Virus record (IMG/VR): IMGVR_UViG_3300028534_000001 | Location: 68,338 to 132,337 of that record | DNA: 64,000 bases | Origin: a virus | Lineage: Duplodnaviria; Heunggongvirae; Uroviricota; Caudoviricetes | Reading direction: 5' to 3' (one strand) | Shown here: positions 5,392 through 59,436 of the stretch, one piece after another | Numbering within the stretch: the first letter of the stretch is position 1 | Layout of the letters: every line of letters begins with the position of its first letter | Notes under the pieces: generated by a model | Database searches by the model: none | What the model saw: only the letters and a program-made list of their open reading frames with translations | What the model was told of the DNA's origin: nothing | Position numbers and translations under genes: made by a program

Positions 5392-6462
5392 TTACATTTT
5401 TATAATAACTTCATCAGTTCCAGATGTTAAAGCTATACCTACTAATTTTTTATAATCTTTTAAAGTTGTAATATCATTTTTAGCAATACATTTACCATTT
5501 TTATCTGCAATAATATAATCACCTTTATTAGCAGAACCATTTATTTTTACTTTAACTCTACCTTTTAAAGCAACTAATATAGGATTTTTAAAATTATTAT
5601 TTTCACCTAAAATATGACCTGGTGTTTCAGAAACTACTCCAAAAACTTTACCACCATTATAAATAGTACATTCGATATTTTCTTCTTTTGAAATTTCTAA
5701 AACAGTTCCTGGTTCATAATTTTTATCACTTTCATAAAATTCTGCTACATCGGCACCAGTTGTTCTAACATTTCCAGCTAAAATAGCACTTTTTTCAACT
5801 TTACCATCAGCATAAAATAAATATGTATTAGGTGTATCTCCAGAATTATCATCATCATATACTATAGCATCTTGTAAATCTTTAGAACCAAAATTTATAT
5901 ATGAATTTAAAGCATAAAATGAACCTGTTCTTATAAAAGATTTACTATAATCATCTTCTGCTTTAAAATCTAAATAATCTGCTTTAGCATTACTATCTTG
6001 AACTACACTAACTTTTGAAGATAATTCATTAAATTCTATATAATTAGTTTTTAATGTATTTATTTTTAAATTTTTTAAATTACCATCATCATCTTCTAAA
6101 GACATGTCGTCTGTAGTATAATTTAAATTAACACCATTTACATTTAAATTATTAGTATTTACTTTATAAGTTTTTAAAGTAATTGTATTTTTATTATCTG
6201 AATCATTTAAATTTATTGTTTTATCATTTTCACTAGAAATAATAATTTTTTTAAGATCAATTTCATCTGTACTTAATTTAGAAAATTTTTCTTCTCCATC
6301 TAAAATTTTATAAATTTTATCATCTAAAATTAAATCATTATCAGCTAATTGTCTTAAAGGTAAATTTAAATTTACACCATTAAAATCTGTAGCTCTATCT
6401 GGGTCATTTCCCTCATACCACAAAAACATATTATTTGTAGTGTATGTTATGTAATTTGCCAT
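5392..6462 (-). CDS. Second tail fibre/spike with C-terminal intramolecular chaperone (Peptidase_G2-like) domain
   Basis: GADVAEFYESDKNYEPGTVLEIS...LVALKGRVKVKING...KGDYI motif. Confidence 0.7.
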   Translation of the reverse strand: MANYITYTTNNMFLWYEGNDPDRATDFNGVNLNLPLRQLADNDLILDDKIYKILDGEEKFSKLSTDEIDLKKIIISSENDKTINLNDSDNKNTITLKTYKVNTNNLNVNGVNLNYTTDDMSLEDDDGNLKNLKINTLKTNYIEFNELSSKVSVVQDSNAKADYLDFKAEDDYSKSFIRTGSFYALNSYINFGSKDLQDAIVYDDDNSGDTPNTYLFYADGKVEKSAILAGNVRTTGADVAEFYESDKNYEPGTVLEISKEENIECTIYNGGKVFGVVSETPGHILGENNNFKNPILVALKGRVKVKINGSANKGDYIIADKNGKCIAKNDITTLKDYKKLVGIALTSGTDEVIIKM

Positions 6463-6476
6463 TCCATTATCCTTTT

Positions 6477-7034
6477 TTATTCACAAACTTTTTTAAAGTA
6501 AATTGTCCAACTAAATTTTAATTTCATTTCATAATCTTTATAAATAGCAGCTCTTGTTTTTCTTGAAAACATAATATTTTTGCCTTGTTTTTCTTCAGGA
6601 GCAGTATTACCATAAATAGATTCACTTAAAAGAGCATATTCTGTTATAAGTTGTTCTCCAGTAGAACCATTACATTCATCTTTTTCTAAAATAACACTAA
6701 AAACTACACCATACCCATAATCATCTTCAATTAAATCATAAGTTACTTCTTTTCTAAAAACTTCATTATCTAATTTATAATCATTACAAGTAGCAGGTCT
6801 AATATTTTTAGTATCGTCTTTTTCAGTTAAATTCATATCACCAAAAGCAATATATTTTATACCTTTAGTATTTTCATCATTAACTAAAAATTGTCTAATA
6901 AGATAACCACTATCTACAACTATTTGATTTTTATCTTCAAATAAAGTTTCGGCGCTTCCATCATCTTTTATAATTTCAGCTTTTAATATACCCATTAGGT
7001 GTTCTCTTGTATCATAATTATCTCTTAAATTCAT
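6477..7034 (-). CDS. Baseplate/tail-fibre attachment protein
   Basis: IAFGD...LDNEVFRK...ITEYAL...MFSRKT...KFSWTIYF pattern seen in myophage baseplate/tail-collar proteins; position. Confidence 0.5.
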   Translation of the reverse strand: MNLRDNYDTREHLMGILKAEIIKDDGSAETLFEDKNQIVVDSGYLIRQFLVNDENTKGIKYIAFGDMNLTEKDDTKNIRPATCNDYKLDNEVFRKEVTYDLIEDDYGYGVVFSVILEKDECNGSTGEQLITEYALLSESIYGNTAPEEKQGKNIMFSRKTRAAIYKDYEMKLKFSWTIYFKKVCE

Positions 7035-7073
7035 TACCTCAAACCTTTATTTTAAAATTATTTAATTTTTTTA

Positions 7074-9443
7074 TTAAATTTTTTCATCATCAGGGAAAAA
7101 TCTTTCTAATACAATATAATTTTTAATTTTACTTAAATCTAATATATAAGGTCTATTATCTTTATAAACAAATTTTCCACCTATTTTTATTAAATTATCT
7201 ATATTATTTATATGTTCATATTTTTCAAACCAAGCTTCTCTAATTAAAAAATTATTATTTTTGACTTCTCTTATATCTAATTTAAATCTTTTTAAATTTA
7301 AAACAACATAATCACCTATAATTTTAAAAATTTTTGATAATTGATAATCTTTATTAAAATAATCTCTTAAAATATATTCTTTATCACCTTTACCAACTAA
7401 ATATAATTCTTTAATATTTAGAGATTTTGGTTCATTATTATGAATAATAGATGGTCCATAAATTTTAAATTTTCCTGTATTTCTAGTCCATTTACCATAA
7501 TGTGAATAATTACCAGCAGGTAACCAAGGGTTATTTAAAACATATAATTCATTTATATTTTCATCTTTTAATGATGTATTTTCTATATATTCAAAATGAT
7601 TAAACATTTTATGATAAATAACTCTATTTTTATATTTGTCATTATACATAGCAAATCTACATTTAGCAATATTTCCATTTAAATGTTTTTGAGAAATTGC
7701 TTTATCAAATGTTACTAAAACATCAACTAATTTATCATTATCTTTTGTTATACATCTTTTAGCTATTTTAATATTATTTAATTTTATAACATCTTCTTTA
7801 TTAGAACCATTTATTAAAATTTTTTCATTATTTTGTACAAATCCTTTAGTTATTAAATTATCTTTTTCTTTAACAATACCTGAACCCATAATTTTAAAAC
7901 CATAAGGAGATTTAGAACCTTGAGAATAAATTTCTAATTTTTCATCAATAGTATTATCATCAAATGTTTCTACAACATTTAAATCAATATCAAATTCAAA
8001 TTTATTTTTACCTTCAAAAGGCTCAAAAATATCTATATTTGATAATTCAATATCTATTTCATTATTTTCATCTATGTTACTTAACTCATATATAGTATTA
8101 GAATTTAAAACTAATTCTTCAAAATAAACTTTTAAATAAAATGGCATTCTCTCTAATAATATTTGTTTATAAGAATTTATATGTTCATTAAATTTATAAA
8201 TTTCTTCTAAATTATCTATATTTATTTTTATTCTATAATCTAAATAACATTCTTTAATATTACCTTCTAGAGAAACTCCTTTAAAATTTATTTCTTCTCC
8301 AGGAATCTTAAAAGCTTCAGTATTAGAAATTTTAATATTAGCATTATTATCTATAGCTAAATCATTTTGTTCAAAATCTTGACCTTTTATTTCTTTTAAA
8401 ACTTCAATATAATCTTTTACTTCTTTAATAATTTCTATTTTTCTATCAACAATATCACCCAATAATTTTATATCTTGTCTAAAAATTATTTTATTATCAT
8501 AAATATCATCAACAAAATATATACCTCTAACATTTTCTTTATTATAAGAACAATCTCCTAAAGAAATATTTTCTAAATATTCTAAAGAAAAATTACCTTT
8601 TCCTGTATAAATACATTTAAATGTATCTTTATATTTATTCCAAAGATTTTCATTTCTTAAAAATATTTCATATTCTTTTTCCATTTTTTCTATATCAATA
8701 TTAAATACATAATTTAAAAAATTTAAATATGAAGAATTTTCATCATTAAATTCTAATTTATTAAATAAATTTAATTTTTTAATAAAATCTAAATCTTTAT
8801 AAGTGCCTTTAAAATCATAATAAGCATTTAATTCTTCTATTTTTTCTAATGATACATATTTTTCAATTTCTTCAGGTTTATGACCTAATATATATTTTAT
8901 AAATAAAATATCATTTTCATAAATATCAAATTTTTCACTTAAATCTTCCGATACTTTTTTTAATAAACTTTCCGTAAAAGAAAAAACATTTGTATTAACT
9001 ATTTCTAAATATTCTTTTTTATAATCTAATTCATATTCAGCATATTGATTAAAAGTTATATTAAAATTTTCTACTAAACTATATACAGATATTATATTAT
9101 AATTTTTAAAAATATATATAGATTCTTCTGTAAAATAAATTAAAATAATATCTCTAAATTTAAATTCATATGAATCATTATTTATATTTATTGTAATTTT
9201 TGTATTTTTATATTTTATTTTTTGTACACTCAAAGAGACATAACTTCCAATATTTATATCTCTATATTTATTATTATATTCTCCATATTTCATTAAATAA
9301 CTATTACTTTGTTTTTCAAATATTATAGGTCCTCCATAATATTCAAAAATTTTAGAAATATTTTTTTGTTTAGTTAAAAAACTAGGAGATTTAAAATTTT
9401 TTGTAGATGTTTTTTGAGAATTAAAAAAATCTTTCCAATTCAT
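7074..9443 (-). CDS. Large baseplate wedge protein (positional gp7-like)
   Basis: 789-aa ORF directly after the gp6-like gene; no diagnostic motif recognised. Confidence 0.4.
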   Translation of the reverse strand: MNWKDFFNSQKTSTKNFKSPSFLTKQKNISKIFEYYGGPIIFEKQSNSYLMKYGEYNNKYRDINIGSYVSLSVQKIKYKNTKITININNDSYEFKFRDIILIYFTEESIYIFKNYNIISVYSLVENFNITFNQYAEYELDYKKEYLEIVNTNVFSFTESLLKKVSEDLSEKFDIYENDILFIKYILGHKPEEIEKYVSLEKIEELNAYYDFKGTYKDLDFIKKLNLFNKLEFNDENSSYLNFLNYVFNIDIEKMEKEYEIFLRNENLWNKYKDTFKCIYTGKGNFSLEYLENISLGDCSYNKENVRGIYFVDDIYDNKIIFRQDIKLLGDIVDRKIEIIKEVKDYIEVLKEIKGQDFEQNDLAIDNNANIKISNTEAFKIPGEEINFKGVSLEGNIKECYLDYRIKINIDNLEEIYKFNEHINSYKQILLERMPFYLKVYFEELVLNSNTIYELSNIDENNEIDIELSNIDIFEPFEGKNKFEFDIDLNVVETFDDNTIDEKLEIYSQGSKSPYGFKIMGSGIVKEKDNLITKGFVQNNEKILINGSNKEDVIKLNNIKIAKRCITKDNDKLVDVLVTFDKAISQKHLNGNIAKCRFAMYNDKYKNRVIYHKMFNHFEYIENTSLKDENINELYVLNNPWLPAGNYSHYGKWTRNTGKFKIYGPSIIHNNEPKSLNIKELYLVGKGDKEYILRDYFNKDYQLSKIFKIIGDYVVLNLKRFKLDIREVKNNNFLIREAWFEKYEHINNIDNLIKIGGKFVYKDNRPYILDLSKIKNYIVLERFFPDDEKI

Positions 9444-15266: not shown

Positions 15267-15572
15267 TTAAGCAGGCGGGATAGATGAAACTGAATTAACT
15301 ACTCTACCATTCATTATATCTTCTTCTTCAAAATAAACTATAACTCTACTATCTACTTTAGGTACATCATTTTGAGCATTAGCGCCGCTTGTTGGTGGCA
15401 TGTCAATATAATACCAAGGTAAATGTTGAGTATCAATTTCATCAGTTACATTATCTAATGCAACTCTTATTCTATTTGCTTGTAAAGGGTCAGCATCATC
15501 TTTTACTGTACCCTGAAATCTATTATTTTTTAAAAATCTAGCTAAAACAGTATCTTGTTTATCTAAAAACAT
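15267..15572 (-). CDS. gp5: gp5 N-terminal OB-fold as a stand-alone protein
   Basis: GTVKDDADPLQANRIRV...HLPWY...PKVDSRVIVYF matches the Gp5_OB/VgrG OB-fold consensus. Confidence 0.7.
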   Translation of the reverse strand: MFLDKQDTVLARFLKNNRFQGTVKDDADPLQANRIRVALDNVTDEIDTQHLPWYYIDMPPTSGANAQNDVPKVDSRVIVYFEEEDIMNGRVVNSVSSIPPA

Positions 15573-15590
15573 TTAAAATACCTTTTATTT

Positions 15591-16691
15591 TTATTTAACA
15601 AAATAATCCCTCATTAAAGTTACTTCTAATTTTTGAAAACCACTTTGATTATAATAATATACTATTTTTTTAACTATATATTTACCTTCTATGTGAATTG
15701 AAGGTTTATTTTTAGTAAGAGTTGTTTCTTTTAATTTTACTAAATCTAATAATTCAAAATTAAATGTTTTATTAGCTTGAGGAATAACTAATGTAACAGT
15801 ATATTTTTCTAATCTATTTCTTAAAACTATATTATTTTTTTGAGTAAAACAATAATTTTCGTGAGTGTTCATATTATCTAACATCAAAGGAAATGGGTGA
15901 TATTTATATAAAACATCATAATCTCTTCCAGTAAATAAAGATTTAGCTGAAATGTCTCCTTCTAAAATTTTATGTGTAGGTGGTTGAAACCATCTAACTT
16001 TTCTCAAAGGAGACAATCTAACATCTAATATATCTGCCTTTGATTTAAATTTTAAATCAGCATAAAATATATCACCATTATTTATATTATTTGTAAAAAT
16101 TTTAAAAGGTTTTTTTAAAATAGTTTTTACACTTGAAACTTTTAATTTTCCATCAGCTTTTAAACCACATAAAATTATATCATTTGGTTTATAACAATAT
16201 TGATATAGATAATCCATAAATTGTTTTTCTGTAGTATTAGCTCTAATCCAATCTTGTTTATCATCTGTTGGGTCAGTTTCTATTTGAGTTTCAATATTTT
16301 TTAAAGAACCCATAACTTCATATGATTTTTTATCTTTAAAAAGTTCTTGTTTAAATTCATTTCCATAATAATTTGTAGCATCTAATAAAGCTTCTACATT
16401 TACTAAATAACTTGCTTTTCCGTGTCTCTCAAAATTAAAATTTCTTAAAGAAAATTTAAATCTTTTTGATATATCGTGGAAAATTAGTTTAACTTCAATT
16501 TTAGCATCAACTTTCATAAACATAGGTAATTTTTCTTCTAATACTATAAATTCAAAAACAGCATAAGGAATTATATTATGTAATTCTTCATAAACTACCA
16601 TATTTTTAAATTCATCCATATGAATTTCATTTCCATCTATATTTATTTTTAATTTCCCAGCTCCATCATTACCTATAGTAGTACTAGACAT
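15591..16691 (-). CDS. Baseplate hub protein (gp27-like)
   Basis: Position upstream of gp5; WIRAN...FM and C-terminal GKYIVKKIVY pattern of hub proteins. Confidence 0.55.
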   Translation of the reverse strand: MSSTTIGNDGAGKLKINIDGNEIHMDEFKNMVVYEELHNIIPYAVFEFIVLEEKLPMFMKVDAKIEVKLIFHDISKRFKFSLRNFNFERHGKASYLVNVEALLDATNYYGNEFKQELFKDKKSYEVMGSLKNIETQIETDPTDDKQDWIRANTTEKQFMDYLYQYCYKPNDIILCGLKADGKLKVSSVKTILKKPFKIFTNNINNGDIFYADLKFKSKADILDVRLSPLRKVRWFQPPTHKILEGDISAKSLFTGRDYDVLYKYHPFPLMLDNMNTHENYCFTQKNNIVLRNRLEKYTVTLVIPQANKTFNFELLDLVKLKETTLTKNKPSIHIEGKYIVKKIVYYYNQSGFQKLEVTLMRDYFVK

Positions 16692-16702
16692 ATTTACTCC
16701 TT

Positions 16703-17017
16703 TTACTTATATTCTTTTTTAATTAAATGTTCTCCTAAAATATTAGTTAAAATAAAACTATTAGGAACTTTTATTATATCTTTATTATCTTTTGTAAAAG
16801 GGTCAATTATATCATTATATAAAGCTAAAACCCACCATAAATTTATATCATCTAAATATTTTTCAGAAATATAATCTAAATCTATATTTTTTGAATTAAC
16901 ATATTCAAATTTTTTTATATTTTTTATATCATCTATTAAAGATTGATTACTTAAAAAATCATATATATTTTGATTAAAATTAAAATAAAGTTTTATATTA
17001 TTAAATTTGTTTAACAT
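16703..17017 (-). CDS. gp53: Baseplate wedge protein, gp53/LysM-like
   Basis: LDYISEKYLDDINLWWVLALYNDIIDPF...IKVP motif. Confidence 0.75.
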   Translation of the reverse strand: MLNKFNNIKLYFNFNQNIYDFLSNQSLIDDIKNIKKFEYVNSKNIDLDYISEKYLDDINLWWVLALYNDIIDPFTKDNKDIIKVPNSFILTNILGEHLIKKEYK

Positions 17018-17027
17018 AAATCAATCC

Positions 17028-17753
17028 TTACATTTTGACAAATCCAGCAAATTCATCTGCAAATAATTGTCTATAATATTCTAATTCTACTGTTACTTGA
17101 CAATAAATAGGTATTCCTCTTTCATCTACATCTTGAGAATAATTTCTAGTTACATTTCTTACATATAATCCACCAGGTACTATTATTTTATTTACAATAT
17201 TTAAAGAAAATAAATCTCCATCTAAATTAGGTGCAGGTTCTAATCTTTTCATAGGACTATATAAATATTGAGAATATGGTGCTGAAAATCCACCAACATT
17301 TTTAGGCAAAGTTGCTTTAGTTGCAAAATTTTCTAATTCTTGATATCCACCAAATCCAAACATTCCAGGAACACATATCATATCTACAGATAAATTAAAT
17401 CTACCTTCACCATTTTGATATAAATTTATAGATTCTGCAATTGTAGCACCATTTAAAAATTCATTTCCTATTTTTTGTGCAACTCCTGCAATTGCATTTC
17501 CAACAACAGGCAATTTAGATAAAGTTTTTGTTATTCCATCTAAAATACCTCCACCAACAGCTTTAGCAGTATCTGTAATCATAGTTGCAGAAGCAGGTGT
17601 TTCTACATTCATACCTGAAGAAAGAGAAATATCTTTTATAAATAAACCTTTCAGAGTCCCTGCAGGACCTGAAATAATACAACCATAACTATTCCATATG
17701 TCTCCACCACTTTTTGTATATTTAGTTGCATAATTACCTAAACTTCCTGCCAT
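17028..17753 (-). CDS. Tail tube initiator/baseplate-tube junction protein (gp48/gp54-like)
   Basis: Position after the tape measure; C-terminal P..CQVTVELE tube-fold-like strand. Confidence 0.45.
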   Translation of the reverse strand: MAGSLGNYATKYTKSGGDIWNSYGCIISGPAGTLKGLFIKDISLSSGMNVETPASATMITDTAKAVGGGILDGITKTLSKLPVVGNAIAGVAQKIGNEFLNGATIAESINLYQNGEGRFNLSVDMICVPGMFGFGGYQELENFATKATLPKNVGGFSAPYSQYLYSPMKRLEPAPNLDGDLFSLNIVNKIIVPGGLYVRNVTRNYSQDVDERGIPIYCQVTVELEYYRQLFADEFAGFVKM

Positions 17754-17767
17754 TTAATTTCCTTTTT

Positions 17768-20700
17768 TTAAATCATCATACTTATAAATTTAACAGATGG
17801 GTCTGTTTGATTATAAATATTTGTTATATTTGTATTTGAATTAGGAGATGAAACAATAGCTGGTGGATTTTTACTTGTATTATTTTCATCTTTTGGATTT
17901 TCTGATAAATTTTGTTTATTTTTTGGATAAATAGAATCAATTCCTTTTTCAATCATACTAGTTATAGAAGAAATTGGATTTATTATAGAAACTATATTAC
18001 CTAAATTACTTAAAAAACTTGAAGTATCTAAAGGTTTTGAATTATTTTTAATATTTGTATTATTTATTTTATTAGTTAAATTATTATTTTTTAATTTTTT
18101 TGTATTCAATGTAGGTTTAGTATTTACTTCTGCTATATGATTATTTAATTGATTATTAGATTGATTATTTAATTGATTATTAGGAACTTTATTAGTTTGG
18201 ACATTTTTATTTTGGTCTTCTTTTTTAGATTCTTCTAATAATTTTATTGTATCTTTATCCATTATTTTCATAAAGTTCTTTTTATCTTTATTCCAAAAAT
18301 CAGTTCTAGTTAATCTATCTAAAGCTATTTTATTAAAAGTAAAACCACCTTCTTTTTCATCAGGTCTAATATTTTCATTTTTTAAACCTTCTAAAATAAA
18401 ACTTCTTTCCGCTACATTAAGTTTTGATAAATCTTCTAATGTTTTTTTATCTTGTTTTGACCAGTCGTCAAATCTTTTTAATGCATCTAATTCTTTAGAA
18501 TTTAAAGAAACTACTTGAGACCAATCTTTAATTTTACTATTACCCCAATAATTATGTTCAACTGCACCTGATTTTTCTAATTTATCCATAATATCTTCAG
18601 AATCATCATCAATTGATAAATGATAAAGACCATATCCTATAGCACCTAAAGCTAAACCACCTGCTACAGCCCATCCAATTGGGTTTGAAGCTAATGCTGC
18701 TACTGCACCTGCACCTTCAGCTGCTCCAGCAGCTCCTGCAACAGCTTCTGTAGCCCCTACTGCACCAGTTACAGCTTCTGCAGTTCCAACTCCTTCTGCT
18801 ACAGTACTAGCAGTAGATAATCCTCTAACTAAATTTAATCCTCTACTACCAAAATTTTTTACTAAATTTAAACCTCTACTTCCTAAAGATTTTACTGATC
18901 TTAATCCTCTTCCTAATTTAACTCTAGTTCTTCTTTTAAAATTTCTCCATCTCCCTTTTTTAGTTCTCCATCTTTTGCTTCTTCTACTTCTTCTATTTCT
19001 TCTATTTTTATTTTTATCCCTATCAAAATCTATATCATAATAATTTAATCCATCATCTGAGTCATCATCTGCATCTAATTTATTTGTAATATTTTCTGAA
19101 TCTTTATCTTGATTAAATTTTGCTTCTTCTAATTTTTTTTGTTCTTCACCTTGTTCAAACATAGCTTTATTTATTGCAAAATTTTGTCCTAATATTTTTA
19201 CCATATCATATAAAGCTGTTGTAAAAAAATTACTTTTTGTAGGTTTTTGGATTGTTTTAATTTGTTGATTTTCAGCTTTATTTAAAGACATATTTTGTTC
19301 TTTACCTTTACTAAATAAAGAATCTATAAAATCATTTTCTATAACTTCAACATCTTTTATATCATCATTTTTATTATTTTTATTTTCTAATAAATTATTA
19401 TTTTTATTTTCTAATAAATTATTATTTTGTTTTTCTATATTTTCAGGTGAAGGTAAAAATGATATTTCTTTAGCTAATTCTTTTGGTAAAGATTTTGAAA
19501 TAAAACCTAATAATTTTTGGTTTTTATTAGATAAATATTCTTTAGATTTATCAGTTATTTTATTAGTATTAGCTTTTAAATTTTGTAATAATTTAGTATC
19601 ATTTAATTTTTTTAAACCATAATTTTTTAATGCTTTAGTAGTATCAATAGTATTTATTATAGTTTTTGAAGCTACATTTGATACTGGTTCCATTGTTTTT
19701 GTAGTTATTTCTTTAGATTTATTTCTTAAATCTTTTAAAGCTTTTTCCCAATAATCTTCTTCTTTATTTTCGTCGTCTTTTAAATCTTCATCTTTTTCTA
19801 TAGTATCTATTTTTTGGATATTTTCTAAAATATCATTTCTATTAGAAGTAGAATCTTTAGTTCTACTTGCCATTTCTTTTAATTTTTCTTCATCAATCTT
19901 TTTTTGTCTATTTCTTAACCATATAGCTTCTTTTAGTTGCTTTTTTTGTAAATCAGTTAATTCTTTATTATTTTTTAAATCTTTTTGTAATGTTTCTACT
20001 ATAGCATCTAATTTTTCACCATCATTATTTTTTAGAGCTTTTTCCATTCCTTCTATAAGCTCTTTAATATTTTTATCATTAGATTTTTTAAAAATTTCAT
20101 TAAAAGATTGTAGTAATTTTTTATCTATTAAAGAATTAGAACCTTCTTTTGTCCATATTTTATCTTGTTTTTTAATATAATTATTTAATATAGATAATTG
20201 TTTATTTAATTTTTCTCTTTCTTTATTTATAGATTCTAATTCATTTTTTAAATTTTTATCATTAGGATTTAATAATAATTGTTTTTCTAAATCATTTTTT
20301 TTAGAATTTAAATTATCTTTTTTTACAGATAAATTATCTATTCTTTGATTTATATTTTCTTCTAAAGTTTTATAAGATAATTCACCTAAATCAAATTTAG
20401 ACATCATTTCTACGATATCTTTATTTGATTTTAAAAATTCTTTATTCATTAAAAATTTTTCTTGATTTAATTTTTTCTCTTCTAAATCATATTTTTCTTC
20501 TCTTTTTTTAATTTTAAGAATTTCAATTTCTTTTTCAACTAAATCATTAGTTAATTCTTCTAATTGTTTAATATTTTCTTCAATGTTTTTAGTTTTTATA
20601 TTTTTTGTATCTTTTATATTTTTAAAATAATTTGTTTTATTTTCTAAATCTTTTTTCTTATTTTTTAAATCTTCTATATTAGTATTTTGAATTTTTTGAT

Positions 20701-22168
20701 TTAAATATTCTTTTTTTGATAATAAATCTTTATTATTAGGATTTTCTTTTAATTTTTCAATTGTTTCATCTAATTCTTTTTGGAATAATTCATATTTTGA
20801 AATTTCTTTTTGAACAATTTCAAATTCTTGTTTAATTTGATTTTTTTCAGTTTTTAATAAACCTAATTTTTTTCTTTGGAATTTTAAACTTTCTTCAGTT
20901 ATTCCATTTAAATCATTTTCTAAATTTTCTTTTTTATTTTTTAAATTATTAGCAATTTTTAATTGATTATTTAATTGTTTTAAATCTTCATCTAATTCTT
21001 TTTTTCTTTCTTCTGAAATATCAACAGATAATAATTCTTCTTGTTTTTTATGAATTGATGCTTCTAATTTTTTTATATTTATTTTTTCTAATTGTTCATT
21101 TACTTTTTCTAATTCTTTAAATTTTTCTAATTCTGAATTTAAAAAATCTATTTCTTCATCTATAAATGAATTGTTTAATTTTTTATCTAATATATTTTTT
21201 AAATTTTCTTTTTCTTTTTTTAAAGCTTCTATATTTTCAGTAGAACCTGATTCTTCAGATTCTTTTATTTTTGTATCTATATTATTTATTTCATTTGTTA
21301 ATTTAGAAATTTCATTATCAAATAATTTAATAAATTTTTTTTCTAAAATTAAAGAATTATATTCATTATTCTCATTTAATTTTTCTTCTTTAATTCTTTT
21401 TTTATGATATTCTTCATTTTCTTTAGATTTTTGTAATTCTATTTCAATAAATTTTTTCTTTTCATCTTCTAAATTTTTAAGTATTTTTTCTACAGTTTCT
21501 AATTCTTTTTCAAGTTTTTTATCATTAGGGTTTTCTTTTAATTTTTTTTCTTATTTTAATTGTTTTTCTTTGTTTTCTTCAATATCTTTATTTTTTGAAT
21601 AATTTTTATTTAAAGAATCTTCATCATTTATTAAAGCATATTTATTATTTATATTTTGGATTTTATTATTTGTATTATTTATAATTTTTTTTAATTTATC
21701 ACTATTTATATTTTGAGCTTTTTTTAAATTTTCAAGTTTTTGTCTATTTATATTTATTTGTTCATTTTTTGCAGTAATAGTTTTAAATTTAATAGCCATT
21801 TCTTCTTCATATTTATCTATTAGTTCTATCCAATTTTTTATATCAGAAAAATTAGCTCTTTTAAACATTTCATCTGCAATATTAAACATTTCTTTTAACG
21901 ATTTAGGGTCTATAGGCATAATAGAACCATTTAATAAAGGATAAATATATTTTTTAATAAATTCTAAAATACCTTTATAATATTCCCCTTTTTCAGATAA
22001 ACTTTCAATGTTTTCTAATTCTTCAGAAGTATTATCATAAAATTTTTCTATTTTTTTACTTAAATAATGCATAAGTTTATAATAAGTTTCTTCATAAGAA
22101 ACATCTATAAATACTGCAGGTTCTGCTTTATTTTTTAAAAAATCTTCAAAAACTTGTAAATTTATCAT
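17768..22168 (-). CDS. Tape measure protein: 1466 codons with one in-frame TAA at 21551-21553
   Basis: ORFs 21551..22168 and 17768..20449 are in the same frame. I read all 367 codons between them and found no stop and no ATG/GTG/TTG; there is no SD before the 20449 ATG. Long coiled coil followed by a Gly/Ala hydrophobic segment; located between tail chaperone and baseplate genes. Confidence 0.75.
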
Positions 22169-22180
22169 TTAAAATAACCT

Positions 22181-22345
22181 TTATCTTTTTTTCTTTTTCT
22201 TTTCTTCCATTCTTCTATTATGGGCTTCTATTATTTTTAAAATATCTAAATAAAGTCTATCCTGGGGAATAAAAGTCCCAAAAACATCTAAAAAACTAGC
22301 TTCTATATCAGTTATATTATTATAACTAAAATTGGGGATATACCT
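22181..22345 (-). CDS. Start-less small ORF in the +1 frame of the chaperone gene (T/gp51-like extension)
   Basis: Frame open 22345-22181: RYIPNFSYNNITDIEASFLDVFGTFIPQDRLYLDILKIIEAHNRRMEEKKKKKR*; fills the gap up to the TMP start; no ATG/GTG/TTG until codon 46 of 54. Confidence 0.6.
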   Translation of the reverse strand, partial: RYIPNFSYNNITDIEASFLDVFGTFIPQDRLYLDILKIIEAHNRRMEEKKKKKR

Positions 22346-23291
22346 TTAATTTTTGTAATTCAATTTCTATAATATATTTTTTACCACATATAGGACATTT
22401 TACTTCAACATCTTTTATATTTACATTAAATCTTTCAATACTTTCTTTTAAATTTTCTATTTCAGATGGAGAAGAATATTTTATTATATTTATTTTATCT
22501 TCTAAAGAAAATTCTTCATTTTTTATATGTAAAGCTAAAAAAATAACTTCTTCATTTACATTAAATTGATCAATTAAATTATCTAATTCATCATCTATAA
22601 AAATATAATCTTTAACTTTTAAAGGTTCTAATTTTATTTCATTACCTTCTAATAATATATACAAAGGAACTTCAACATTTTCATCTTCTATTTCAAATGC
22701 TAAATCTTCTATTGTAATAGGTGCTTGTATAAGAAAATTACAAGGAACTTTTTCTGGTCCATCAAAATTTTTTAATTTTTTTTCTAATTCATCTAATTCT
22801 TCATAATTTTTCTTTTTATCTTCTAAAGCTTTTTCTAAATCTTTATCTGTTAATTCTGGAATTACATCTTCAATTATTTGAAGTTTAGATTTAATTTCTT
22901 CAATATCATTTTTTATTTGTTGTATTTCAGGATTATCTTTAAAACCTGTACAATTAAAATTAGTATGCCAAGCAAAATTTTCTGTTGTTAATATATTACT
23001 AACAGAAGATAAAATAACAAAATCTGCTAATTCTAAATCTTCAATTTTGAAATTATCATCACCTTCAAAATATATAGCATCTCTATAAATATCTACAGCT
23101 TCTTCTAAAGAATATTCACTGTTCAATTTAGCTATTTCAGCTACTTCTCCATAATAAAGACCTCTAACATAAATAGCTGAAATATTAGGATAACTCCTAT
23201 ACATTGTTGGAGTTCCAGAAATTTTTTTATATAAAATATTTTTTTTAATTTTTCCAATATTTATTGATTTTTCAATAGATTCTATATTCAT
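22326..23291 (-). CDS. Tail/baseplate-hub assembly chaperone (T4 gp26-like)
   Basis: YVRGLYYGE N-terminal motif, C-terminal CPICG zinc knuckle and an earlier C; position between tube genes and TMP. Confidence 0.6.
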   Translation of the reverse strand: MNIESIEKSINIGKIKKNILYKKISGTPTMYRSYPNISAIYVRGLYYGEVAEIAKLNSEYSLEEAVDIYRDAIYFEGDDNFKIEDLELADFVILSSVSNILTTENFAWHTNFNCTGFKDNPEIQQIKNDIEEIKSKLQIIEDVIPELTDKDLEKALEDKKKNYEELDELEKKLKNFDGPEKVPCNFLIQAPITIEDLAFEIEDENVEVPLYILLEGNEIKLEPLKVKDYIFIDDELDNLIDQFNVNEEVIFLALHIKNEEFSLEDKINIIKYSSPSEIENLKESIERFNVNIKDVEVKCPICGKKYIIEIELQKLKVYPQF

Positions 23292-23320
23292 ATTATTCTC
23301 CTATCTTTTTGATTATTTAA

Positions 23321-23884
23321 TTATGTTCCTAATTCCCAATCTACTATTATAAATTTTACAGAATATGTAACTTTTCCTGAATTACCATAACTTCCTGCCC
23401 ATTGGGGTAATTCTGCAGGAAATACAGTAAATCTACTAACTAATGAAGATTTACCTAAAAAATCATATCTGTGAATTTCTATTTTTAAAGAATATTCGTG
23501 TAAATTTTTAGGATTTATTGCTCTCCATTTAGTTAAAGGTGTTTTTGAAACTAATTTATGAATAGCTTTATAAAATGTAAGTTTATCAGAATCTACAAAT
23601 GTAATAGATAATTCTTCTGGTTTTTGCCATTGAGCAGGATATTTAACACTAAACCAACTAGCAAAATCTATACTTCCTATATTAACATTTCCTTCATCTA
23701 TAGTAACATCTTCACAAAGAACAATAGCATGGTTACCTTTACCTATCATGTTAAAATCTTTTAAAGAAACACTACATTTGCTACCTACATCTAAAACTTT
23801 AATAAAAAATTTATCTCCTGTCCCAATAGTAAAATCACCATTTAAATGACTTAAATTACCATATTTTATTTCAGGTAAATTCAT
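23321..23884 (-). CDS. Tail tube-like protein (second tube-fold paralog)
   Basis: ELSITFVDSD...FY...IEIHRYD...FTVFP...SY...YSVKF tube-fold pattern. Confidence 0.55.
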   Translation of the reverse strand: MNLPEIKYGNLSHLNGDFTIGTGDKFFIKVLDVGSKCSVSLKDFNMIGKGNHAIVLCEDVTIDEGNVNIGSIDFASWFSVKYPAQWQKPEELSITFVDSDKLTFYKAIHKLVSKTPLTKWRAINPKNLHEYSLKIEIHRYDFLGKSSLVSRFTVFPAELPQWAGSYGNSGKVTYSVKFIIVDWELGT

Positions 23885-24030: not shown

Positions 24031-24612
24031 TTACCAAGAATCTCCACCTTCTCCATTATCTTCAGCATACATAGAATATACAAATGTAAAATTATATTTC
24101 ATAGGTTCACCTTCTTGTCCTAAAGCACCTTCTTGTTCTGCTTTTGGAATACAATCGTGAAATACCCATTGTCTTGTAGGTTTCCCTGTATTATCAGCTA
24201 AAATAATAGTAACTTTAAATCTATCACTAGGTTTTAATAAAGCTGAAGCAACATTTTCAGCAGCATTAGCTGATGACGCTGATGCACCTGATTTATAATA
24301 AAGTCTTTTAATAGCTCTATATAATTTACCAACTTTACCATCAACATCTTCAAATGCGTGAACACTAACTTCACCATTTTTAGTTACTTTTCCTTGATAT
24401 GTAAAATGAAAACCACCTACATCAATTTCAACTAATTCTTCTTCTGAAGCAGGAGGACATCCATCAATAGAATCAGCTTTAAATTCTAATTTTGCATCTT
24501 TAAGAGCACCATTTATTTTTCCACCACCTTCAACTTTTACAATCCAAATTTGAGTAGTTTGAAGATTTTTTAAGGCACTTCTAAATTCTTGAAATTTTCT
24601 TGTTATAGCCAT
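24031..24612 (-). CDS. gp19: Tail tube protein (T4 gp19-like)
   Basis: GGFHFTYQG, FED, WVFHDCIP, YNFTFVY motifs; directly after the sheath gene. Confidence 0.8.
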   Translation of the reverse strand: MAITRKFQEFRSALKNLQTTQIWIVKVEGGGKINGALKDAKLEFKADSIDGCPPASEEELVEIDVGGFHFTYQGKVTKNGEVSVHAFEDVDGKVGKLYRAIKRLYYKSGASASSANAAENVASALLKPSDRFKVTIILADNTGKPTRQWVFHDCIPKAEQEGALGQEGEPMKYNFTFVYSMYAEDNGEGGDSW

Positions 24613-24655: not shown

Positions 24656-27265
24656 TTATACCGTAATTGCTAAACTTCTATTGAATATTGCTAATGTAAC
24701 ATCAATTTCATTGATATCCATAGTAGGTTGGAAACCTAAGAAAATTGGTAATCTTCTATTATCTATGTCAAAATTACTTGGTGCTACTACACATTTATAT
24801 GCATATACACCTTCATTAGCTTGAATTTCTTGTGACATAAATGTATCAATTGTTGATTTAATTCTACTCCAAGTTGCTGGATCATTATAGTTGAATAATT
24901 CATATTTTAAGTAACTTTCTAAACCATATCTGATAACCATTAACAAGAATGCTACACTTCTTAATTGTAATGGACTTGGTTTAGAATACATTGTTCTATT
25001 ACCCCAAATAATTAAACCTTGACCTGCTTTATATACAATAGGATTTATTCTAGCATCAACTATACCATCTAATTCACCATCACTAAATTGATGTTTAAGT
25101 TCTAATCCTAAAACTTTTCCTTTTACTAATCCTGCTGCTGGAGTAAATAATGTATAATTTCTATGTACATAATTTTGTGTTATAGCACCATATGTACTTG
25201 GTGGTGTCCATACATATTCTTTATTGTAAGGGTCATATTGTTTTACCCATCCTGTAAATAATGAACCTAAATGAGTATTTATCATAAGTTTTTCAGCATA
25301 TGCTATAACTGCATTATAAGCATCTGCACTTTCTTCTGCTTGTGGGTCCATTGACCAATAACAATGTGTATTATTTTCACCTTGAGCCATTGCAACTCTT
25401 AACATTTCTTGAGCATAAGCTGCTATAGTATAACCACCATCTAATAATAATTGAACAGGTGTTTTATTATTATTACTTAATGTTCTTAAAGCAAAAATCA
25501 TATCAGCTAAACTTACAGGACTTCCATAATCCCCACCATTCATATAATTTACACCAGCATCTAAAACTTTACCTTCATAATCTCCAATTTTTACAGTATC
25601 ACCAATATGTTCACCTGTTAATGGATATGTTAATAAAGTATATGGGTAATATTGTTCACCATCTAATATATGTTTAGATAAATCTGTTAAATCTTTTTGA
25701 TATCTATATACATACCATCCTTTTTTATTTGCGTCATCATAATTATAATCTCTTTGTAATGGTCTGTCTAAAAAGATTTGTTTATTATCTGAATTTATAT
25801 CTTCAACTGTATATATTTCATATAATTCAGAACCATATAATGTTTCTCTATCATCATAATTAGGAACAAATTTAATTTTATCACCTATAGCAACATTTCC
25901 TAAGTCATTTACAAATACTTCTATATCTCCAGTATATAAATCTTCTCTTGTTTCTACTTTATTTCCATCATCATCAACTGCAGCTTTGAATATTTTTTCT
26001 TTTATTCTTTGCCAAACTGAATAATCTGTTGTTCCTGGATTTATAGGTTGTTTATCAATTGTTAAAGCAAATGGATTATCTTTTACTTGAATATATTCAC
26101 TAAATCCGTTAATTACTGTTTCGATATAAAGTTTTTTACCAAAACCATCAACAAAATTTCTATCTTTTGATACTAACCATCTTTCTACTTCTTCTCCATT
26201 TTCATAAACTACTAAGTAGAATGCTTTCATATCAGGATAATCTTTTGATTTTTCAATACCAATTTCTAATTCATTATTCCATTCACCTTGATTTAAACCT
26301 GTTACTAAAAATGTATACATTTGATTCCATTGAGAAATTTTAGTAACATTATAAATTGCTTCTCCACCATCAAGAGTTACAGGTTGTTTTGTATGAACAA
26401 AATATAAACTAATTTCATCTTTTGTTTTTACATAAGCTTTATCATCAGTTTCATTTCCATCATCATCTAATACTACAATTTCATCTCCATCGTGGAAAAA
26501 GTCAGAATTAGCTACAACAATTGCTGCACTTTCATTAACATCTAAAAGTAAAACTGTTGTTTCATCATTAGATTTATTTTTAATAACAGTACCTTTTTTA
26601 CCTGTAATAGTAGTTTGATTACCATCACTATCAACATCTAAAATGATTCTATCAAAATTATCTCTTTTTTCAACATCTATTACATCAACTAAATTCCATC
26701 CTTCTTTATGAACATCATAATCTGTTAAAGGAACTAAATCTTCATTAGTTGAAAAAAATATTTTTTGACCTGCTTTAATATTTTTAGGAGCACCAGCTAA
26801 AACAAATTCATAAGAACCAATAACACCTGCCCCTGGTCTATCTGTCATTTTTTCAACTTGAATTAAACTAGGGTCTTGAATAAAAAGATAACTATCTAAT
26901 TCTTCTTGAGTTAATCCTTTTGGTAAAGGTTCAACAACTTTTTTTACTTGATCTCCATATTCATCACCTATAGCGTATTTTCCGCCCCTTACTAAAACTC
27001 CTCCATATTTAGCATCATCACTTTCAGCTCTTACTACCCATAATTTATTAGTAGAACTTAAAATGTTGATTGCAGCTTGATTTTCTGGATATCTCAAATC
27101 AGGAGTTCCATAATGTTTAATATAATCTTCTTCACTTGTTATTAGTCTTGGTTTTTTTACCATTCCTTTTTTACTTCTCACGACAATACCTGCATAAATC
27201 CCTGATAAACCTTGGATTACTGCACTTCTGTCTTGAGTTTTAAAAACTACTTTTGCTGCACCCAT
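24656..27265 (-). CDS. gp18: Contractile tail sheath protein (T4 gp18-like) with insertion domains
   Basis: TPAAGLVKG, INPIVYKAGQGLIIWGNRT, PLQLRSVAFLL and YKCVV C-terminal sheath motifs. Confidence 0.92.
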   Translation of the reverse strand: MGAAKVVFKTQDRSAVIQGLSGIYAGIVVRSKKGMVKKPRLITSEEDYIKHYGTPDLRYPENQAAINILSSTNKLWVVRAESDDAKYGGVLVRGGKYAIGDEYGDQVKKVVEPLPKGLTQEELDSYLFIQDPSLIQVEKMTDRPGAGVIGSYEFVLAGAPKNIKAGQKIFFSTNEDLVPLTDYDVHKEGWNLVDVIDVEKRDNFDRIILDVDSDGNQTTITGKKGTVIKNKSNDETTVLLLDVNESAAIVVANSDFFHDGDEIVVLDDDGNETDDKAYVKTKDEISLYFVHTKQPVTLDGGEAIYNVTKISQWNQMYTFLVTGLNQGEWNNELEIGIEKSKDYPDMKAFYLVVYENGEEVERWLVSKDRNFVDGFGKKLYIETVINGFSEYIQVKDNPFALTIDKQPINPGTTDYSVWQRIKEKIFKAAVDDDGNKVETREDLYTGDIEVFVNDLGNVAIGDKIKFVPNYDDRETLYGSELYEIYTVEDINSDNKQIFLDRPLQRDYNYDDANKKGWYVYRYQKDLTDLSKHILDGEQYYPYTLLTYPLTGEHIGDTVKIGDYEGKVLDAGVNYMNGGDYGSPVSLADMIFALRTLSNNNKTPVQLLLDGGYTIAAYAQEMLRVAMAQGENNTHCYWSMDPQAEESADAYNAVIAYAEKLMINTHLGSLFTGWVKQYDPYNKEYVWTPPSTYGAITQNYVHRNYTLFTPAAGLVKGKVLGLELKHQFSDGELDGIVDARINPIVYKAGQGLIIWGNRTMYSKPSPLQLRSVAFLLMVIRYGLESYLKYELFNYNDPATWSRIKSTIDTFMSQEIQANEGVYAYKCVVAPSNFDIDNRRLPIFLGFQPTMDINEIDVTLAIFNRSLAITV

Positions 27266-52390: not shown

Positions 52391-53524
52391 TTAAATATTT
52401 TCTATATAATTAAAATCTATTTTAGAATGTTCAATTGGATTTAATAAATAATCTATTTCTTCACTTTCTTGCAATGATTTTTCACTATTACCATAATTTA
52501 AATATTTTCCTATCCATTTAAGAGGATTTTCTTTTATTTCTGGATAAATAGGTTTTAAACCAATAGCTTTTAATCTTACATTAGTTAAAAATTTAATATA
52601 TGTTTTAGCAATATCACTATTTATTCCCATAGGAGAACCATATTTATATAATTCATCAATCCATCTCATTTCTTCTTCACTTGCTTCCCAATACATATCA
52701 TAAATTTTTGATGTAATTTTTTCAAAAATACCTTTAAAATGTTTATCTTTTTTAAGAAATTGAATAGTTTTTTGTGTAAATGCTAAATGTTTATTTTCGT
52801 CTCTTGATATAAGTTGTAAAATTCTTGAACTTCCTGCTAATCTACCTGAAAACTCTGTAATACTCCAAACACTTGCAAATCCCGAATAAAATCTAATTCC
52901 TTCAAGGATATTTATAGAAATCATTGCTAAAAATATTTTTTCTTTAAATTTTTCTAACCATTCTTCAGATAATTCTAGTCCGTGTTGATTATGATAAAGA
53001 TAATCTATAACCCATTCATATAAATTATTATATTCTCTAATAATAGTGTCTGTTTCTTTTCTAAGTTCTTCATTTTTCCAGCTATCATCAAAAATAATCC
53101 CTGGATTTTCATTCATCATAAATTCAACCATATATGAATAACTAAAAGAATGAATTGCACCTTCAAAAAATTGAATAATGTTTAAAGCATTTTCAAATTC
53201 AGGATTTGTAGTAATTTGTCCAAACATTAAAACTGGACTTCTTCCTTGTAAAGAATCTAACATAACTAATTTTGATAAAACAGTAGTAAAAATATGTTTT
53301 TGAATTTTATCTAAATTATAAAAATCAGCTTTATCATTCACTAGTGATATTTCTTGTGCTTGCCAGAATAGGTCTTTCATATCTTGATTCAATTTAGAAT
53401 AAAATTCATATTTTACTTTATCGTATCTTTGTGTATTTCTTGCACAACCAAAAAAGATTGGTTGTTCTTCAGTTTTTATAGGTTCATTTTGATATAAATT
53501 TAATATACATTTTGAATGTTCCAT
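52391..53524 (-). CDS. nrdB: Ribonucleotide reductase class Ia beta subunit
   Basis: LDSLQ, E...HSFSY (radical Tyr), EGIRFYSGF and RDENKH. Confidence 0.92.
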   Translation of the reverse strand: MEHSKCILNLYQNEPIKTEEQPIFFGCARNTQRYDKVKYEFYSKLNQDMKDLFWQAQEISLVNDKADFYNLDKIQKHIFTTVLSKLVMLDSLQGRSPVLMFGQITTNPEFENALNIIQFFEGAIHSFSYSYMVEFMMNENPGIIFDDSWKNEELRKETDTIIREYNNLYEWVIDYLYHNQHGLELSEEWLEKFKEKIFLAMISINILEGIRFYSGFASVWSITEFSGRLAGSSRILQLISRDENKHLAFTQKTIQFLKKDKHFKGIFEKITSKIYDMYWEASEEEMRWIDELYKYGSPMGINSDIAKTYIKFLTNVRLKAIGLKPIYPEIKENPLKWIGKYLNYGNSEKSLQESEEIDYLLNPIEHSKIDFNYIENI

Positions 53525-53564
53525 TTAATTTTTCTCCTTTTTTGAAGTATTTAATTAAAAATTT

Positions 53565-56027
53565 TTATAATGTACAACCACCGCCTGCACATCCTTCATT
53601 TTCATCTTCAATTTTATTAAGAACATCATTTTTAGTATGGTCTTCTGTTCTACTAATAACATAATATAAAGTTTTAATTCCATATTTATATATAAAATAT
53701 AATCTTTTTAATGCTTCATTAAAAGGTATTTTTTTATTAGGATATTTTGAAAAATCAATATTTTCATTCAATGAAATTGCTTGGTCAATCCATTTTTGTA
53801 AAATAGCAACTAATTTCCAATACTCTAAAACATCACTTTCTAAAGCTAAATTTCTTTTATAAAATTCTTTGTATTTTTTAATTTCAGGTAAAACTCCATA
53901 TACATTTATTTTATTGTCTTCTACTGAATATTTTAATGATTTAGGCATATTGATACCAGAAATCATATTTGCTGGTCTTGACGAATTTGAGCTCGGAACT
54001 GCTGTAAGTAAAGTTGAATTTCTCATTCCAAATTCTAAAATATCTTTTTTCAAATTATCCCAATCTAATGTAGGATTATGTTTTACTAATAAATCAACAT
54101 TTTTTTCATACCAATCTATAGGAGTTAAGCCTTCACTATATTTTGTATCTTTAAAATAATTACAAGCACCTTTTTCTTTTGCTAATTCAACAGAAGCTTT
54201 AATACCATAATATAACATTTCTTCCATAACTTCATTTACAATGTCTCTTGCTTTTTGAGTATTATAATCAGCATCATATTTTGCTAACATATAAAATAAG
54301 TTACCTGGACTAATACCTAAAGCTCTTCTATTTTTAGTAAATTTTTCAAAAGTATCTATACCAAAATACTCTTGATAATCAATTTTTTCATCTAAAAATC
54401 TTACTAATAAATCCATATTTTTTTCAAAGAATTTTTTTCTTTTTTCTTTATCTTTAGGTAAATTACCAAAATTGATACCTCCTAAAATACAACTAAATGT
54501 TTCACCAAAATTGATTTTGATTTCTTCTCCATCATTATCTAATAAGTTATATAACTCTTTAAGAATTTTTTTATTCTTGTCATCTTCAATATTGTATCTA
54601 AAAAATCTATATAATTGAAACCATTCACCATTTTTATATAAATTTTCAAACCATTCTTTGAATTCTTTTTTATTTTTTATCTTTAAAACGTAATCTTCAT
54701 CTGGAAAACTTGGCAAAGCTATTTCCGTACATAAATTGCTTGTATTTACAGGCAATTTCCAAGCACTTTGTTGTTGCATTGCATTAGCATTTACTAAATA
54801 TATTCTATTAGTTGAATATCTTTCATTGAAAAATTTTAATAAGAAATCTTCAGTATCAATTTCTTTTTTATGTTTTTCACTTACTTTTCTTTCAAATTGT
54901 TTATATTGTTTTTCAAAATTTTCTAATCCAATATTATCCCATAAATCTTCAATTTCATTTAAGTGGAATAATGTTAAAGGTTTTTTCTTTTTAAGTCTAT
55001 CAAAAATTAGTTTTAAATCCATACTAAATGCGTGGTCAGCATATCTTACTGACATTTCTTCAGAACCTCTATTATTTTTAACTCTTATTAAATCTTCGTA
55101 TTCATAATGAAAAAATGGATAATACATTGTAGATGAACCAGTTCTTCCACTATTAGGTTGTGTAGAACTTTTAGAAATATCTTGTTTTACTCTTAAATAA
55201 GGTATTACACCTGTGTGTTCTTCTTGTCCATTACCAATTTCAGCACCTAATCCTCTAATTTCAACTTTAATACCTATACCAGCTCTAAGTTTAGTAATAA
55301 GTTTATACATAGATTTACTTGCATTTCCTATACTTTCTATACTATCTCCTAAATTTAAACCTGCGCACGAAGTAAATCCTCTAGTAGTTGTTCTAATTCC
55401 TGCCATATCTGGAGTTGGTAAAAATATATCAAAATTTGATAATGCTTTATAAAAATTTTTAATATATTTATTTCTTTTTTGTTTATTTTTTATTCTTGCA
55501 AATACATATAAAGGTATCATAAAATAAATTTCTTGAGGAGTTTCAACTGCTTTTCCATTTCTTTTAATAGCATATTTTTTAAGCATTTGTGTAATACCTA
55601 AATAAGTAAATTTGTAGTCTTTTGAAAAATCAATTATTTGTAAAAGTTCATTTATTTCATCTTCAGTATAATATTTGAATAATTCAAAGTCATAAATTCC
55701 TTTTTCAATTTGACTTTTAATTCTTTCTAAATTAAATTTAGGTGTAAAACTTCCATAAATTCTTTTATATAAATCTTGTAATTCTGTTCTAGCTGCAGCA
55801 TATTGGTAATCTGGTTTATTTTCATCAATTAAATCAGCAATTGATAAAGTTAAATTTTTTTGAATTTCTTCTGTAGTTATTCCATCATATAATCTTAATC
55901 TAAAATTATTAACAATTTCATTTATATCACAATCTAATCCTTCAATTGCGTATTGAATATGTGTATAAATTTTATCGAAATTAAATGGTACTAAATTACC
56001 ATTTCTTTTTTTAACATTGATGTCCAT
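53565..56027 (-). CDS. nrdA: Ribonucleotide reductase class Ia alpha subunit
   Basis: N-terminal ATP cone (VKKRNG), TSCAG, SNLCTEI, CILGGIN, RRALG, MRNSTL and C-terminal CAGGGC. Confidence 0.95.
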   Translation of the reverse strand: MDINVKKRNGNLVPFNFDKIYTHIQYAIEGLDCDINEIVNNFRLRLYDGITTEEIQKNLTLSIADLIDENKPDYQYAAARTELQDLYKRIYGSFTPKFNLERIKSQIEKGIYDFELFKYYTEDEINELLQIIDFSKDYKFTYLGITQMLKKYAIKRNGKAVETPQEIYFMIPLYVFARIKNKQKRNKYIKNFYKALSNFDIFLPTPDMAGIRTTTRGFTSCAGLNLGDSIESIGNASKSMYKLITKLRAGIGIKVEIRGLGAEIGNGQEEHTGVIPYLRVKQDISKSSTQPNSGRTGSSTMYYPFFHYEYEDLIRVKNNRGSEEMSVRYADHAFSMDLKLIFDRLKKKKPLTLFHLNEIEDLWDNIGLENFEKQYKQFERKVSEKHKKEIDTEDFLLKFFNERYSTNRIYLVNANAMQQQSAWKLPVNTSNLCTEIALPSFPDEDYVLKIKNKKEFKEWFENLYKNGEWFQLYRFFRYNIEDDKNKKILKELYNLLDNDGEEIKINFGETFSCILGGINFGNLPKDKEKRKKFFEKNMDLLVRFLDEKIDYQEYFGIDTFEKFTKNRRALGISPGNLFYMLAKYDADYNTQKARDIVNEVMEEMLYYGIKASVELAKEKGACNYFKDTKYSEGLTPIDWYEKNVDLLVKHNPTLDWDNLKKDILEFGMRNSTLLTAVPSSNSSRPANMISGINMPKSLKYSVEDNKINVYGVLPEIKKYKEFYKRNLALESDVLEYWKLVAILQKWIDQAISLNENIDFSKYPNKKIPFNEALKRLYFIYKYGIKTLYYVISRTEDHTKNDVLNKIEDENEGCAGGGCTL

Positions 56028-56133
56028 TTATTTATCTCCTTTTTTATATTGTTATTATATCATATTTAATTTGATAAGATGACTTTTATATACTTATCAT
56101 ATAATAGAAAATAGATTTAAAGATTTAAAATTT

Positions 56134-57855: not shown

Positions 57856-57960
57856 TTTTTCGCCTCTTTTTTATTTTTATTTAAATTTTAAACTTATTAT
57901 ATAATAAGAAGTAGTGTTAAAAGGTTTTAAATTTTAAATAAAAATAAAAAAGGATAAATT

Positions 57961-58203
57961 ATGGATTTTAATTTAAAATTAAAAAAAGATATTGTTGAAT
58001 TATATAACAAATACTTTAATAAAAAATCTATACATTTTATAAAAAAATTTAATGATTTAAAATTATTTAAAAAAGTGTATAGAATTTTTGATGATAATAA
58101 TTTTTATATTTTAGTTGATGAAAATTTTAATACATATAAAATTAAAAAGAAAAAATTAGAAGATTATAATGATGATGATTTTTATAATTTGGTTGATTTT
58201 TAA
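57961..58203 (+). CDS. Hypothetical protein
   Basis: AAAGGA SD; TTTAAATA motif upstream. Confidence 0.55.
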   Translation: MDFNLKLKKDIVELYNKYFNKKSIHFIKKFNDLKLFKKVYRIFDDNNFYILVDENFNTYKIKKKKLEDYNDDDFYNLVDF

Positions 58204-58226
58204 TAGGATAAAATATAATTTTTATT

Positions 58227-58685
58227 TTAATCCCATAATCTAGGTAATAATCTTCCAAATTCTTTAAACCATTGAATTTTCATATTTTCAATTTCTTTAA
58301 GATTAACTGGATGTTCATCTTCATACCATTGAATTTTTTGCCATTTTTTTAAAAGAACTTGTATTCTTTTTTTAGTAAAACAATCACCTTCATAATGTGT
58401 ATCTACACCCCAATGTTTTTCTAAGTCTTTTAATTTGTAGATTATTAAATCTTCAAAATAGAAAAAATCCCACCATTCGTCTTGTTTTAAAATTTTATGG
58501 TATTTTAATAAATTTCTAAAATATTTTTTTATATTATAATATTTACTTTTAAAAAATTCAATAATTTCATAAGGTAATTCAAATTTTTCATTATAATATA
58601 ATTCTTTTATATAATAATTAAATTTATCACATTTATTTTTTAATAATATTTTCAAATAATTAAAATCTATTCCATATATTTGCAT
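58227..58685 (-). CDS. Hypothetical protein
   Basis: ORF in an early-type operon. Confidence 0.55.
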   Translation of the reverse strand: MQIYGIDFNYLKILLKNKCDKFNYYIKELYYNEKFELPYEIIEFFKSKYYNIKKYFRNLLKYHKILKQDEWWDFFYFEDLIIYKLKDLEKHWGVDTHYEGDCFTKKRIQVLLKKWQKIQWYEDEHPVNLKEIENMKIQWFKEFGRLLPRLWD

Positions 58686-58695
58686 TAAAATACCT

Positions 58696-59281: not shown

Positions 59282-59312
59282 GATTGTTTCCTTTTTATGT
59301 TTAATTTATATA

Positions 59313-59341
59313 ATTATACCAAATTTATTAAAAAAAGTCAA
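59313..59341 (-). promoter_or_regulatory. sigma70-type promoter
   Basis: TTGACT-17nt-TATAAT. Confidence 0.8.
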
Positions 59342-59436
59342 CTAATTTATTAAAAAATATATTAAAAATATATTAAAATACTATATAAATTTTATAACAT
59401 TAAATAATTATATAGATATATTATAAGGGATTTCAA

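Follow-up and report, generated by a model that had tools for sequence, protein, structure and literature searches.

A T4-type jumbo phage record with an in-frame TAA in its tape-measure gene: probably a private error or defective allele

Tape-measure proteins (TMPs) of contractile-tailed phages, represented by gp29 of T4 with gpH of lambda as a functional analogue, are encoded in the slot that leads from the genes at the tube and tail-assembly chaperone positions to the baseplate genes. T4 gp29 has about 590 amino acids (aa), and only few TMP copies are needed per tail in either phage. Among large phages, some are known to recode TAG or TGA; UAA is, according to data from E. coli, the most efficiently terminated stop codon. 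According to Atkins et al. (2016, PMC5009743), hopping over an in-frame stop was demonstrated with synthetic constructs and is not known to occur in nature. Here a stretch of 64,000 nt (the window) is described, comprising bases 68338-132337 of the 222,650-bp virus record IMGVR_UViG_3300028534_000001, in which the TMP gene is split by a single in-frame TAA. This TAA is very probably a private error, or a defective or minor allele, of this one record, and no special decoding would be involved. As judged from the sequences, the functional TMP gene is uninterrupted in other assemblies of the same phage, and readthrough, a hop or a suppressor would not be needed to explain it.

The whole gene occupies 17768-22168 on the minus strand, to which all features described below also belong, and consists of 1466 codons and a terminal stop. 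Translation of this interval yields one frame with 205 codons, one TAA as codon 206 (21551-21553) and 1260 more codons, just as the preliminary description had reported. The stop stands in the context QLK*EKKLKENPNDK, encoded by CAA TTA AAA TAA GAA AAA AAA TTA. The list of open reading frames (ORFs) gives two separate entries, 21551-22168 (205 aa) and 17768-20449 (893 aa). The former holds the N-terminal 205 codons (21554-22168), called as a gene of its own in the record, with a partial Shine-Dalgarno (SD) sequence, AAAGG, 5' of its ATG. The latter was called from the first internal ATG (Met-574), which is preceded by no SD. Between them lies a stretch of 367 codons (20450-21550), rich in Lys, Glu and Asn, that was left unannotated because of the TAA.

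In the TMP frame this gap is free of stops, whereas the remaining two sense frames have 51 and 60. The number of stops never fell below 24 in 20,000 shuffles, and the chance of finding zero from base composition alone is about 2e-21. ATG, GTG and TTG are likewise absent from all 367 codons, and no SD-like sequence was found either before the ATG at 20449 or after the TAA, in a genome in which AAGGA-type SDs are found on about 72% of the ORFs of at least 100 aa. Everything that the preliminary description had observed is borne out, including the NPN[DN]K motif, which appears just after the stop at residue 213 and twice more at residues 476 and 634. A non-canonical start just after the stop was considered as well and is unsupported, the first in-frame ATA being 22 codons on and without an SD. 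When all 222,650 bp were scanned for an in-frame stop followed by a long start-free open frame, the TMP site was the only real case; a second candidate, at genome position 171323, was rejected as the antisense frame of a Lys/Glu-rich gene.

The intact gene was reached by an exact-sequence protein cluster look-up at the 90% level, queried with both called fragments. Both share a cluster with P0006, a protein of 1466 aa, which is the sum of 205 + 1 + 1260. P0006 originates from the 207-kb ENA contig ERZ27262685 k141_589182, in which the TMP is complete and uninterrupted and reads ...EKQLELEKKLKENPNDK... at the site. Over 16,401 nt, colinearity between this ENA locus (L017) and the window is complete, and just two bases are different, in codons 205 and 206 (21552-21556). 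At 21556, the first base of codon 205, the record has A and the others G on the minus strand, so that AAA (Lys) replaces GAA (Glu). At 21552, the second base of codon 206, the record has A and the others T, so that TAA (stop) replaces TTA (Leu). Logan contig SRR8439170_3978 (L019) likewise carries GAA TTA at the site, is otherwise identical over 5,106 nt, and leaves the gene uninterrupted. A sense codon in close relatives was the very outcome that the preliminary description had named as a refutation, pointing to an error or a mutation. Its view of the gene as one 1466-codon TMP is correct, on the evidence of the intact P0006, of synteny and of the PHROG matches given below. The look-up was a cheap test, and it recovered the intact allele where similarity and pattern searches had missed it; viral contigs, for instance, gave no match to an exact DNA pattern in which the stop was replaced by NNN. 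The 205-aa and 893-aa calls and the 1.1-kb gap are thus to be merged into one 1466-codon TMP gene, with the interruption marked as particular to this record.

How the two bases came to differ can be approached from their distribution. Over a compared span of 61.8 kb (genome 65411-114789 and 116902-129364), the record departs from the ENA and Logan assemblies at three bases. The third one is intergenic, at window position 34391 between the genes for an S77 prohead-protease-like protein and a gp23-type capsid protein, where the minus strand has A in the record and C in both other assemblies. Two of the three differences are thus 4 nt apart, for which our own arithmetic gives a chance of about 4e-4, and this spacing argues for one local event instead of independent neutral changes. 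Such an event would be a mutation affecting several nucleotides at once, or else an error confined to this part of the consensus. Furthermore, no other difference from the intact allele is present in the 1260 codons 3' of the stop, and the break is therefore extremely recent or not biological. As a simpler alternative to recoding, the preliminary description had proposed a single-base sequencing error or a defective allele; the error or defective allele is retained here, but the single base is not, since two bases are changed, G to A and T to A.

Two origins may be considered for the private change. The TAA could be an artefact of the assembly or its consensus, or could stem from a minor haplotype taken up by the assembler; alternatively, it could be a very recent nonsense haplotype that would be defective or be kept going by complementation from wild-type genomes. 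The former is placed somewhat ahead of the latter, the origin of the change being something that we infer. Correction of reads by k-mers in low-complexity, A-rich sequence might, as we also infer, be a source of a local error. Comparable cases are phage tail genes with ochre (nonsense) alleles, and genomes assembled from metagenomes with consensus errors at single bases. They resemble this case in showing a lone in-frame stop with the frame behind it intact, the phage also being found with an intact allele. The present case differs from them in its two nearby substitutions, and in that the genome is uncultured and apparently complete, of a lytic type, and no decaying prophage.

Several observations weigh against an error or defective allele. 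Two wrong consensus bases would be unusual in a complete, terminally repeated 222-kb contig if coverage was good, so that a real haplotype, in the majority in the source sample, is conceivable. One sequencing run may underlie both the ENA and the Logan assembly, which are independent as assemblies but may not be so as samples. On the coding strand, each of the three differences is a change to A, in keeping with an artefact and equally with the mutational bias of the genome. It might also be that AAA TAA is real and is the prevailing genotype in a viable population of a vent phage, with the TMP completed by a natural in-frame stop hop or by sliding of tRNA-Lys over A4-UAA-G-A8. In-frame stop hopping would then be documented from nature for the first time; this reading is considered quite improbable.

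Strain variation in the ENA sample was seen at another locus. A contig of the same sample, k141_712880 (ERZ27262685, L021), matches window positions ~52992-61027, the nrd / two-component region, with 99.5% identity (37 mismatches and 2 gaps in 8 kb). At least one sample thus contains closely related strains side by side, and with them microdiversity that an assembler could mix.

Signals for recoding were sought around the stop and throughout the genome. The stop is not conserved, being TTA in two assemblies of the same phage, and the TMPs of the relatives are single ORFs. No RNA structure was detected 3' of the stop; the 151 nt around it have a minimum free energy of -2.1 kcal/mol with a z of +0.64, no better than shuffles. 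The AAA codons on both sides of the stop, in AAA TAA GAA AAA, are a chance expectation in DNA with 58% A. The preliminary description had envisaged that readthrough or a tRNA-Lys hop would yield a short form along with the full-length one, and this claim falls with the GAA TTA found in assemblies of the same phage. An evolved, programmed readthrough or stop-hop, which would make a short product of 205 aa and a long one of 1466 aa much as the G/GT tail chaperones are made, has in its favour the anatomy of the site only, that is, one stop, a long start-free frame and AAA on both sides. The stop that it would depend on is missing from two assemblies matching every other base around the site and from all the more distant relatives, and no structure, SD-like element or other stimulator was found; this reading is therefore highly improbable and is counted as refuted. 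With a conserved stop, this structural gene of a dsDNA phage would have offered a first example from nature of a stop hop or of UAA readthrough. As things stand, the locus does not serve as a recoding candidate, and its value is mainly corrective.

Decoding of TAA as a sense codon, by an altered code or by an ochre suppressor encoded by the phage or the host, can be judged from the genome as a whole. The genome encodes 14 tRNAs, clustered at genome positions 6161-7937 on the minus strand, outside the window (Ser x2, Asp, Glu, Thr, Gln, Asn, Leu x2, Met x2, Tyr, Trp and Ile); no suppressor tRNA is among them, and none of the 14 has a UUA anticodon. TAA terminates 198 of the 241 ORFs of at least 100 aa (82%), and the genes are tightly packed under table 11. 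Genome-wide reassignment of the stop codon received no support, with one in-frame case in 222,650 bp. The phage resembles large phages with reassigned TAG or TGA and suppressor tRNAs in having a large genome with its own tRNA cluster; it differs from them in that a single TAA is concerned, that a suppressor tRNA is lacking and that TAA is the main terminator. Nothing specific speaks in favour of such sense decoding; the use of stop codons across the genome contradicts it, and it is scarcely credible.

Rescue could also be adventitious instead of evolved. The TAA haplotype could be real and viable, with enough full-length TMP made by leakage through or around the UAA, be it readthrough by a near-cognate tRNA, a +6 hop in which peptidyl-tRNA-Lys leaves one AAA and lands on the AAA two codons on, or sliding on the A4...A8 runs. 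The slippery, A-rich context with matched take-off and landing AAA codons flanking TAA GAA would suit it, a virion requires very few copies of the protein, and the genome in the record is complete and terminally repeated. The site also shares its identical AAA take-off and landing codons around a stop with the stop-hopping and bypassing systems, namely the synthetic E. coli constructs and T4 gene 60; unlike those, the stop here is not conserved and no stem-loop stimulator was found. The efficient termination at UAA counts against such leakage, as do the intact allele in the same phage and the lack of a stimulatory structure and of a suppressor tRNA. A natural in-frame hop over a stop is, moreover, without known precedent (PMC5009743). 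Leakage of this kind is thus unlikely, and a private error or defective allele remains the favoured explanation.

Two other sources of the change were tried and rejected. Targeted adenine mutagenesis resembling that of diversity-generating retroelements does not apply, as just two bases are changed and the 25-mer is not repeated anywhere in the genome at up to 3 mismatches. Confusion of repeats in a de Bruijn graph is not explanatory either: the 21-mer of the sense allele repeats elsewhere, but the TAA version resembles nothing beyond a 15-mer. That 21-mer (GAATTAGAAAAAAAATTAAAA) recurs at ~22770-22790 within the 321-aa gene, 1.2 kb upstream of the site.

More distant relatives were retrieved with a conserved domain of the TMP, and comprise an ENA contig, described as coming from a hydrothermal-vent metagenome, and six records from JGI, of which one is viral and the other five are metagenomic. 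The domain (GLYHLSIDDDSE...GAVEHN...W..DDWS), residues 1180-1289 (18302-18631), was seen only in these seven contigs (two of the JGI entries having identical coordinates). It is the only part of the TMP that can be aligned with the distant relatives, and it belongs to no Pfam family. All six more distant relatives (L009/L014/L015, L010, L012, L013 and L016) have single-ORF TMPs, with lengths of 613, 1119, 1206, 1297 and 1358 aa, so that the family ranges from 613 to 1466 aa when the phage of the record is included. Each of these TMPs starts straight after an in-frame stop and has no start-free lead; the relatives are too diverged for an alignment at codon 206.

The lengths of the relatives bear on one more possibility, that the TAA haplotype is real and makes an N-terminally shortened TMP of 893 aa from the ATG at 20449, with a shorter tail expected. 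Such a protein would fall within the 613-1358 aa of the relatives, and would keep both the conserved C-terminal domain and the hydrophobic segment. However, its ATG lacks an SD, though most ORFs of the genome have one, and the 367 codons upstream are still open and identical to the intact allele, with no sign of use of the start. A shortened TMP is accordingly very unlikely.

Repeated elements were noted in the relatives. In the relative with the 1358-aa TMP the GLYHLSIDDDSE domain occurs twice. In L009 the domain was noted at 6001-7320, and at L009 ~7600-8300 (TMP residues ~1060-1220) a repeated ...LNPNKK... lies in a duplicated block of ~100 residues, echoing NPN[DN]K.

The identity of the gene rests on its position and on profile matches. 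Residues 1098-1249 of the full protein match the PHROG TMP families phrog_1293 (E 7e-8) and phrog_1533 (E 1e-5), weakly, and no Pfam match was obtained for the protein. Based on synteny and these matches, the gene is identified as the single 1466-codon tape-measure gene of a T4-type phage. Like the TMPs of contractile tails, the product occupies the slot described above, is very long, Lys/Glu-rich and probably helical, and combines a hydrophobic Gly/Ala-rich segment with PHROG matches that are weak but specific to TMPs. It differs from T4 gp29 in being much longer, in having no Pfam match, and in that its N-terminal 205 residues have no detectable homologue. The central part is a very long stretch rich in Lys, Glu and Asn, and the composition suggests a long coiled coil. 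An Arg/Lys-rich basic patch was read from the translation at residues 1052-1082 (18923-19015), followed by the Gly/Ala-rich hydrophobic segment at residues 1116-1184 (18617-18823), which aligns with the relatives and may be membrane-active or channel-lining.

For the N-terminal 205 residues (21554-22168), no homologue was found in viral contigs, in GenBank phages or among 1.84 billion representative proteins, and they have no counterpart in the TMPs of the relatives. BLASTP of the N-terminus against the TMP of a 37%-identical relative gave no meaningful similarity. Since these searches came back empty, they are uninformative on whether the N-terminus belongs to the TMP.

The surroundings of the gene are those of a contractile tail. 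The record has direct terminal repeats, is estimated to be complete and has 20.6% GC, and its matches to sheath, gp25-like, gp5-type, gp23-type and S77 protease proteins identify the phage, at the level of sequence, as a T4-type jumbo phage. The tail sheath gene (24656-27265) matches phrog_23 (E 1e-43), and the tail tube gene (24031-24612) matches phrog_4542 (E 6e-4) with a weak match to PF06841. Next come two genes of 187 and 321 aa (22326-23884), to which a role as tail-assembly chaperones might be assigned from position alone. Downstream of the TMP gene are predicted baseplate genes (15267-17753) for proteins of 241 aa, 104 aa (a gp25-like wedge protein), 366 aa and 101 aa (a gp5/Phage_base_V OB domain, PF04717), and the gp23-type capsid protein and the S77 prohead protease are encoded further along the genome. 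The order of sheath, tube, two small genes, TMP and gp25-like/gp5-like baseplate genes is the same in L009, L010 and L017, and the same two-gene layout between tube and TMP is found in the relatives. The spacer from the 321-aa gene to the TMP start (22169-22325) measures 157 nt, and the relatives have corresponding spacers of similar size, 165 nt in L009 (4300-4464) and 183 nt in L010 (4533-4715).

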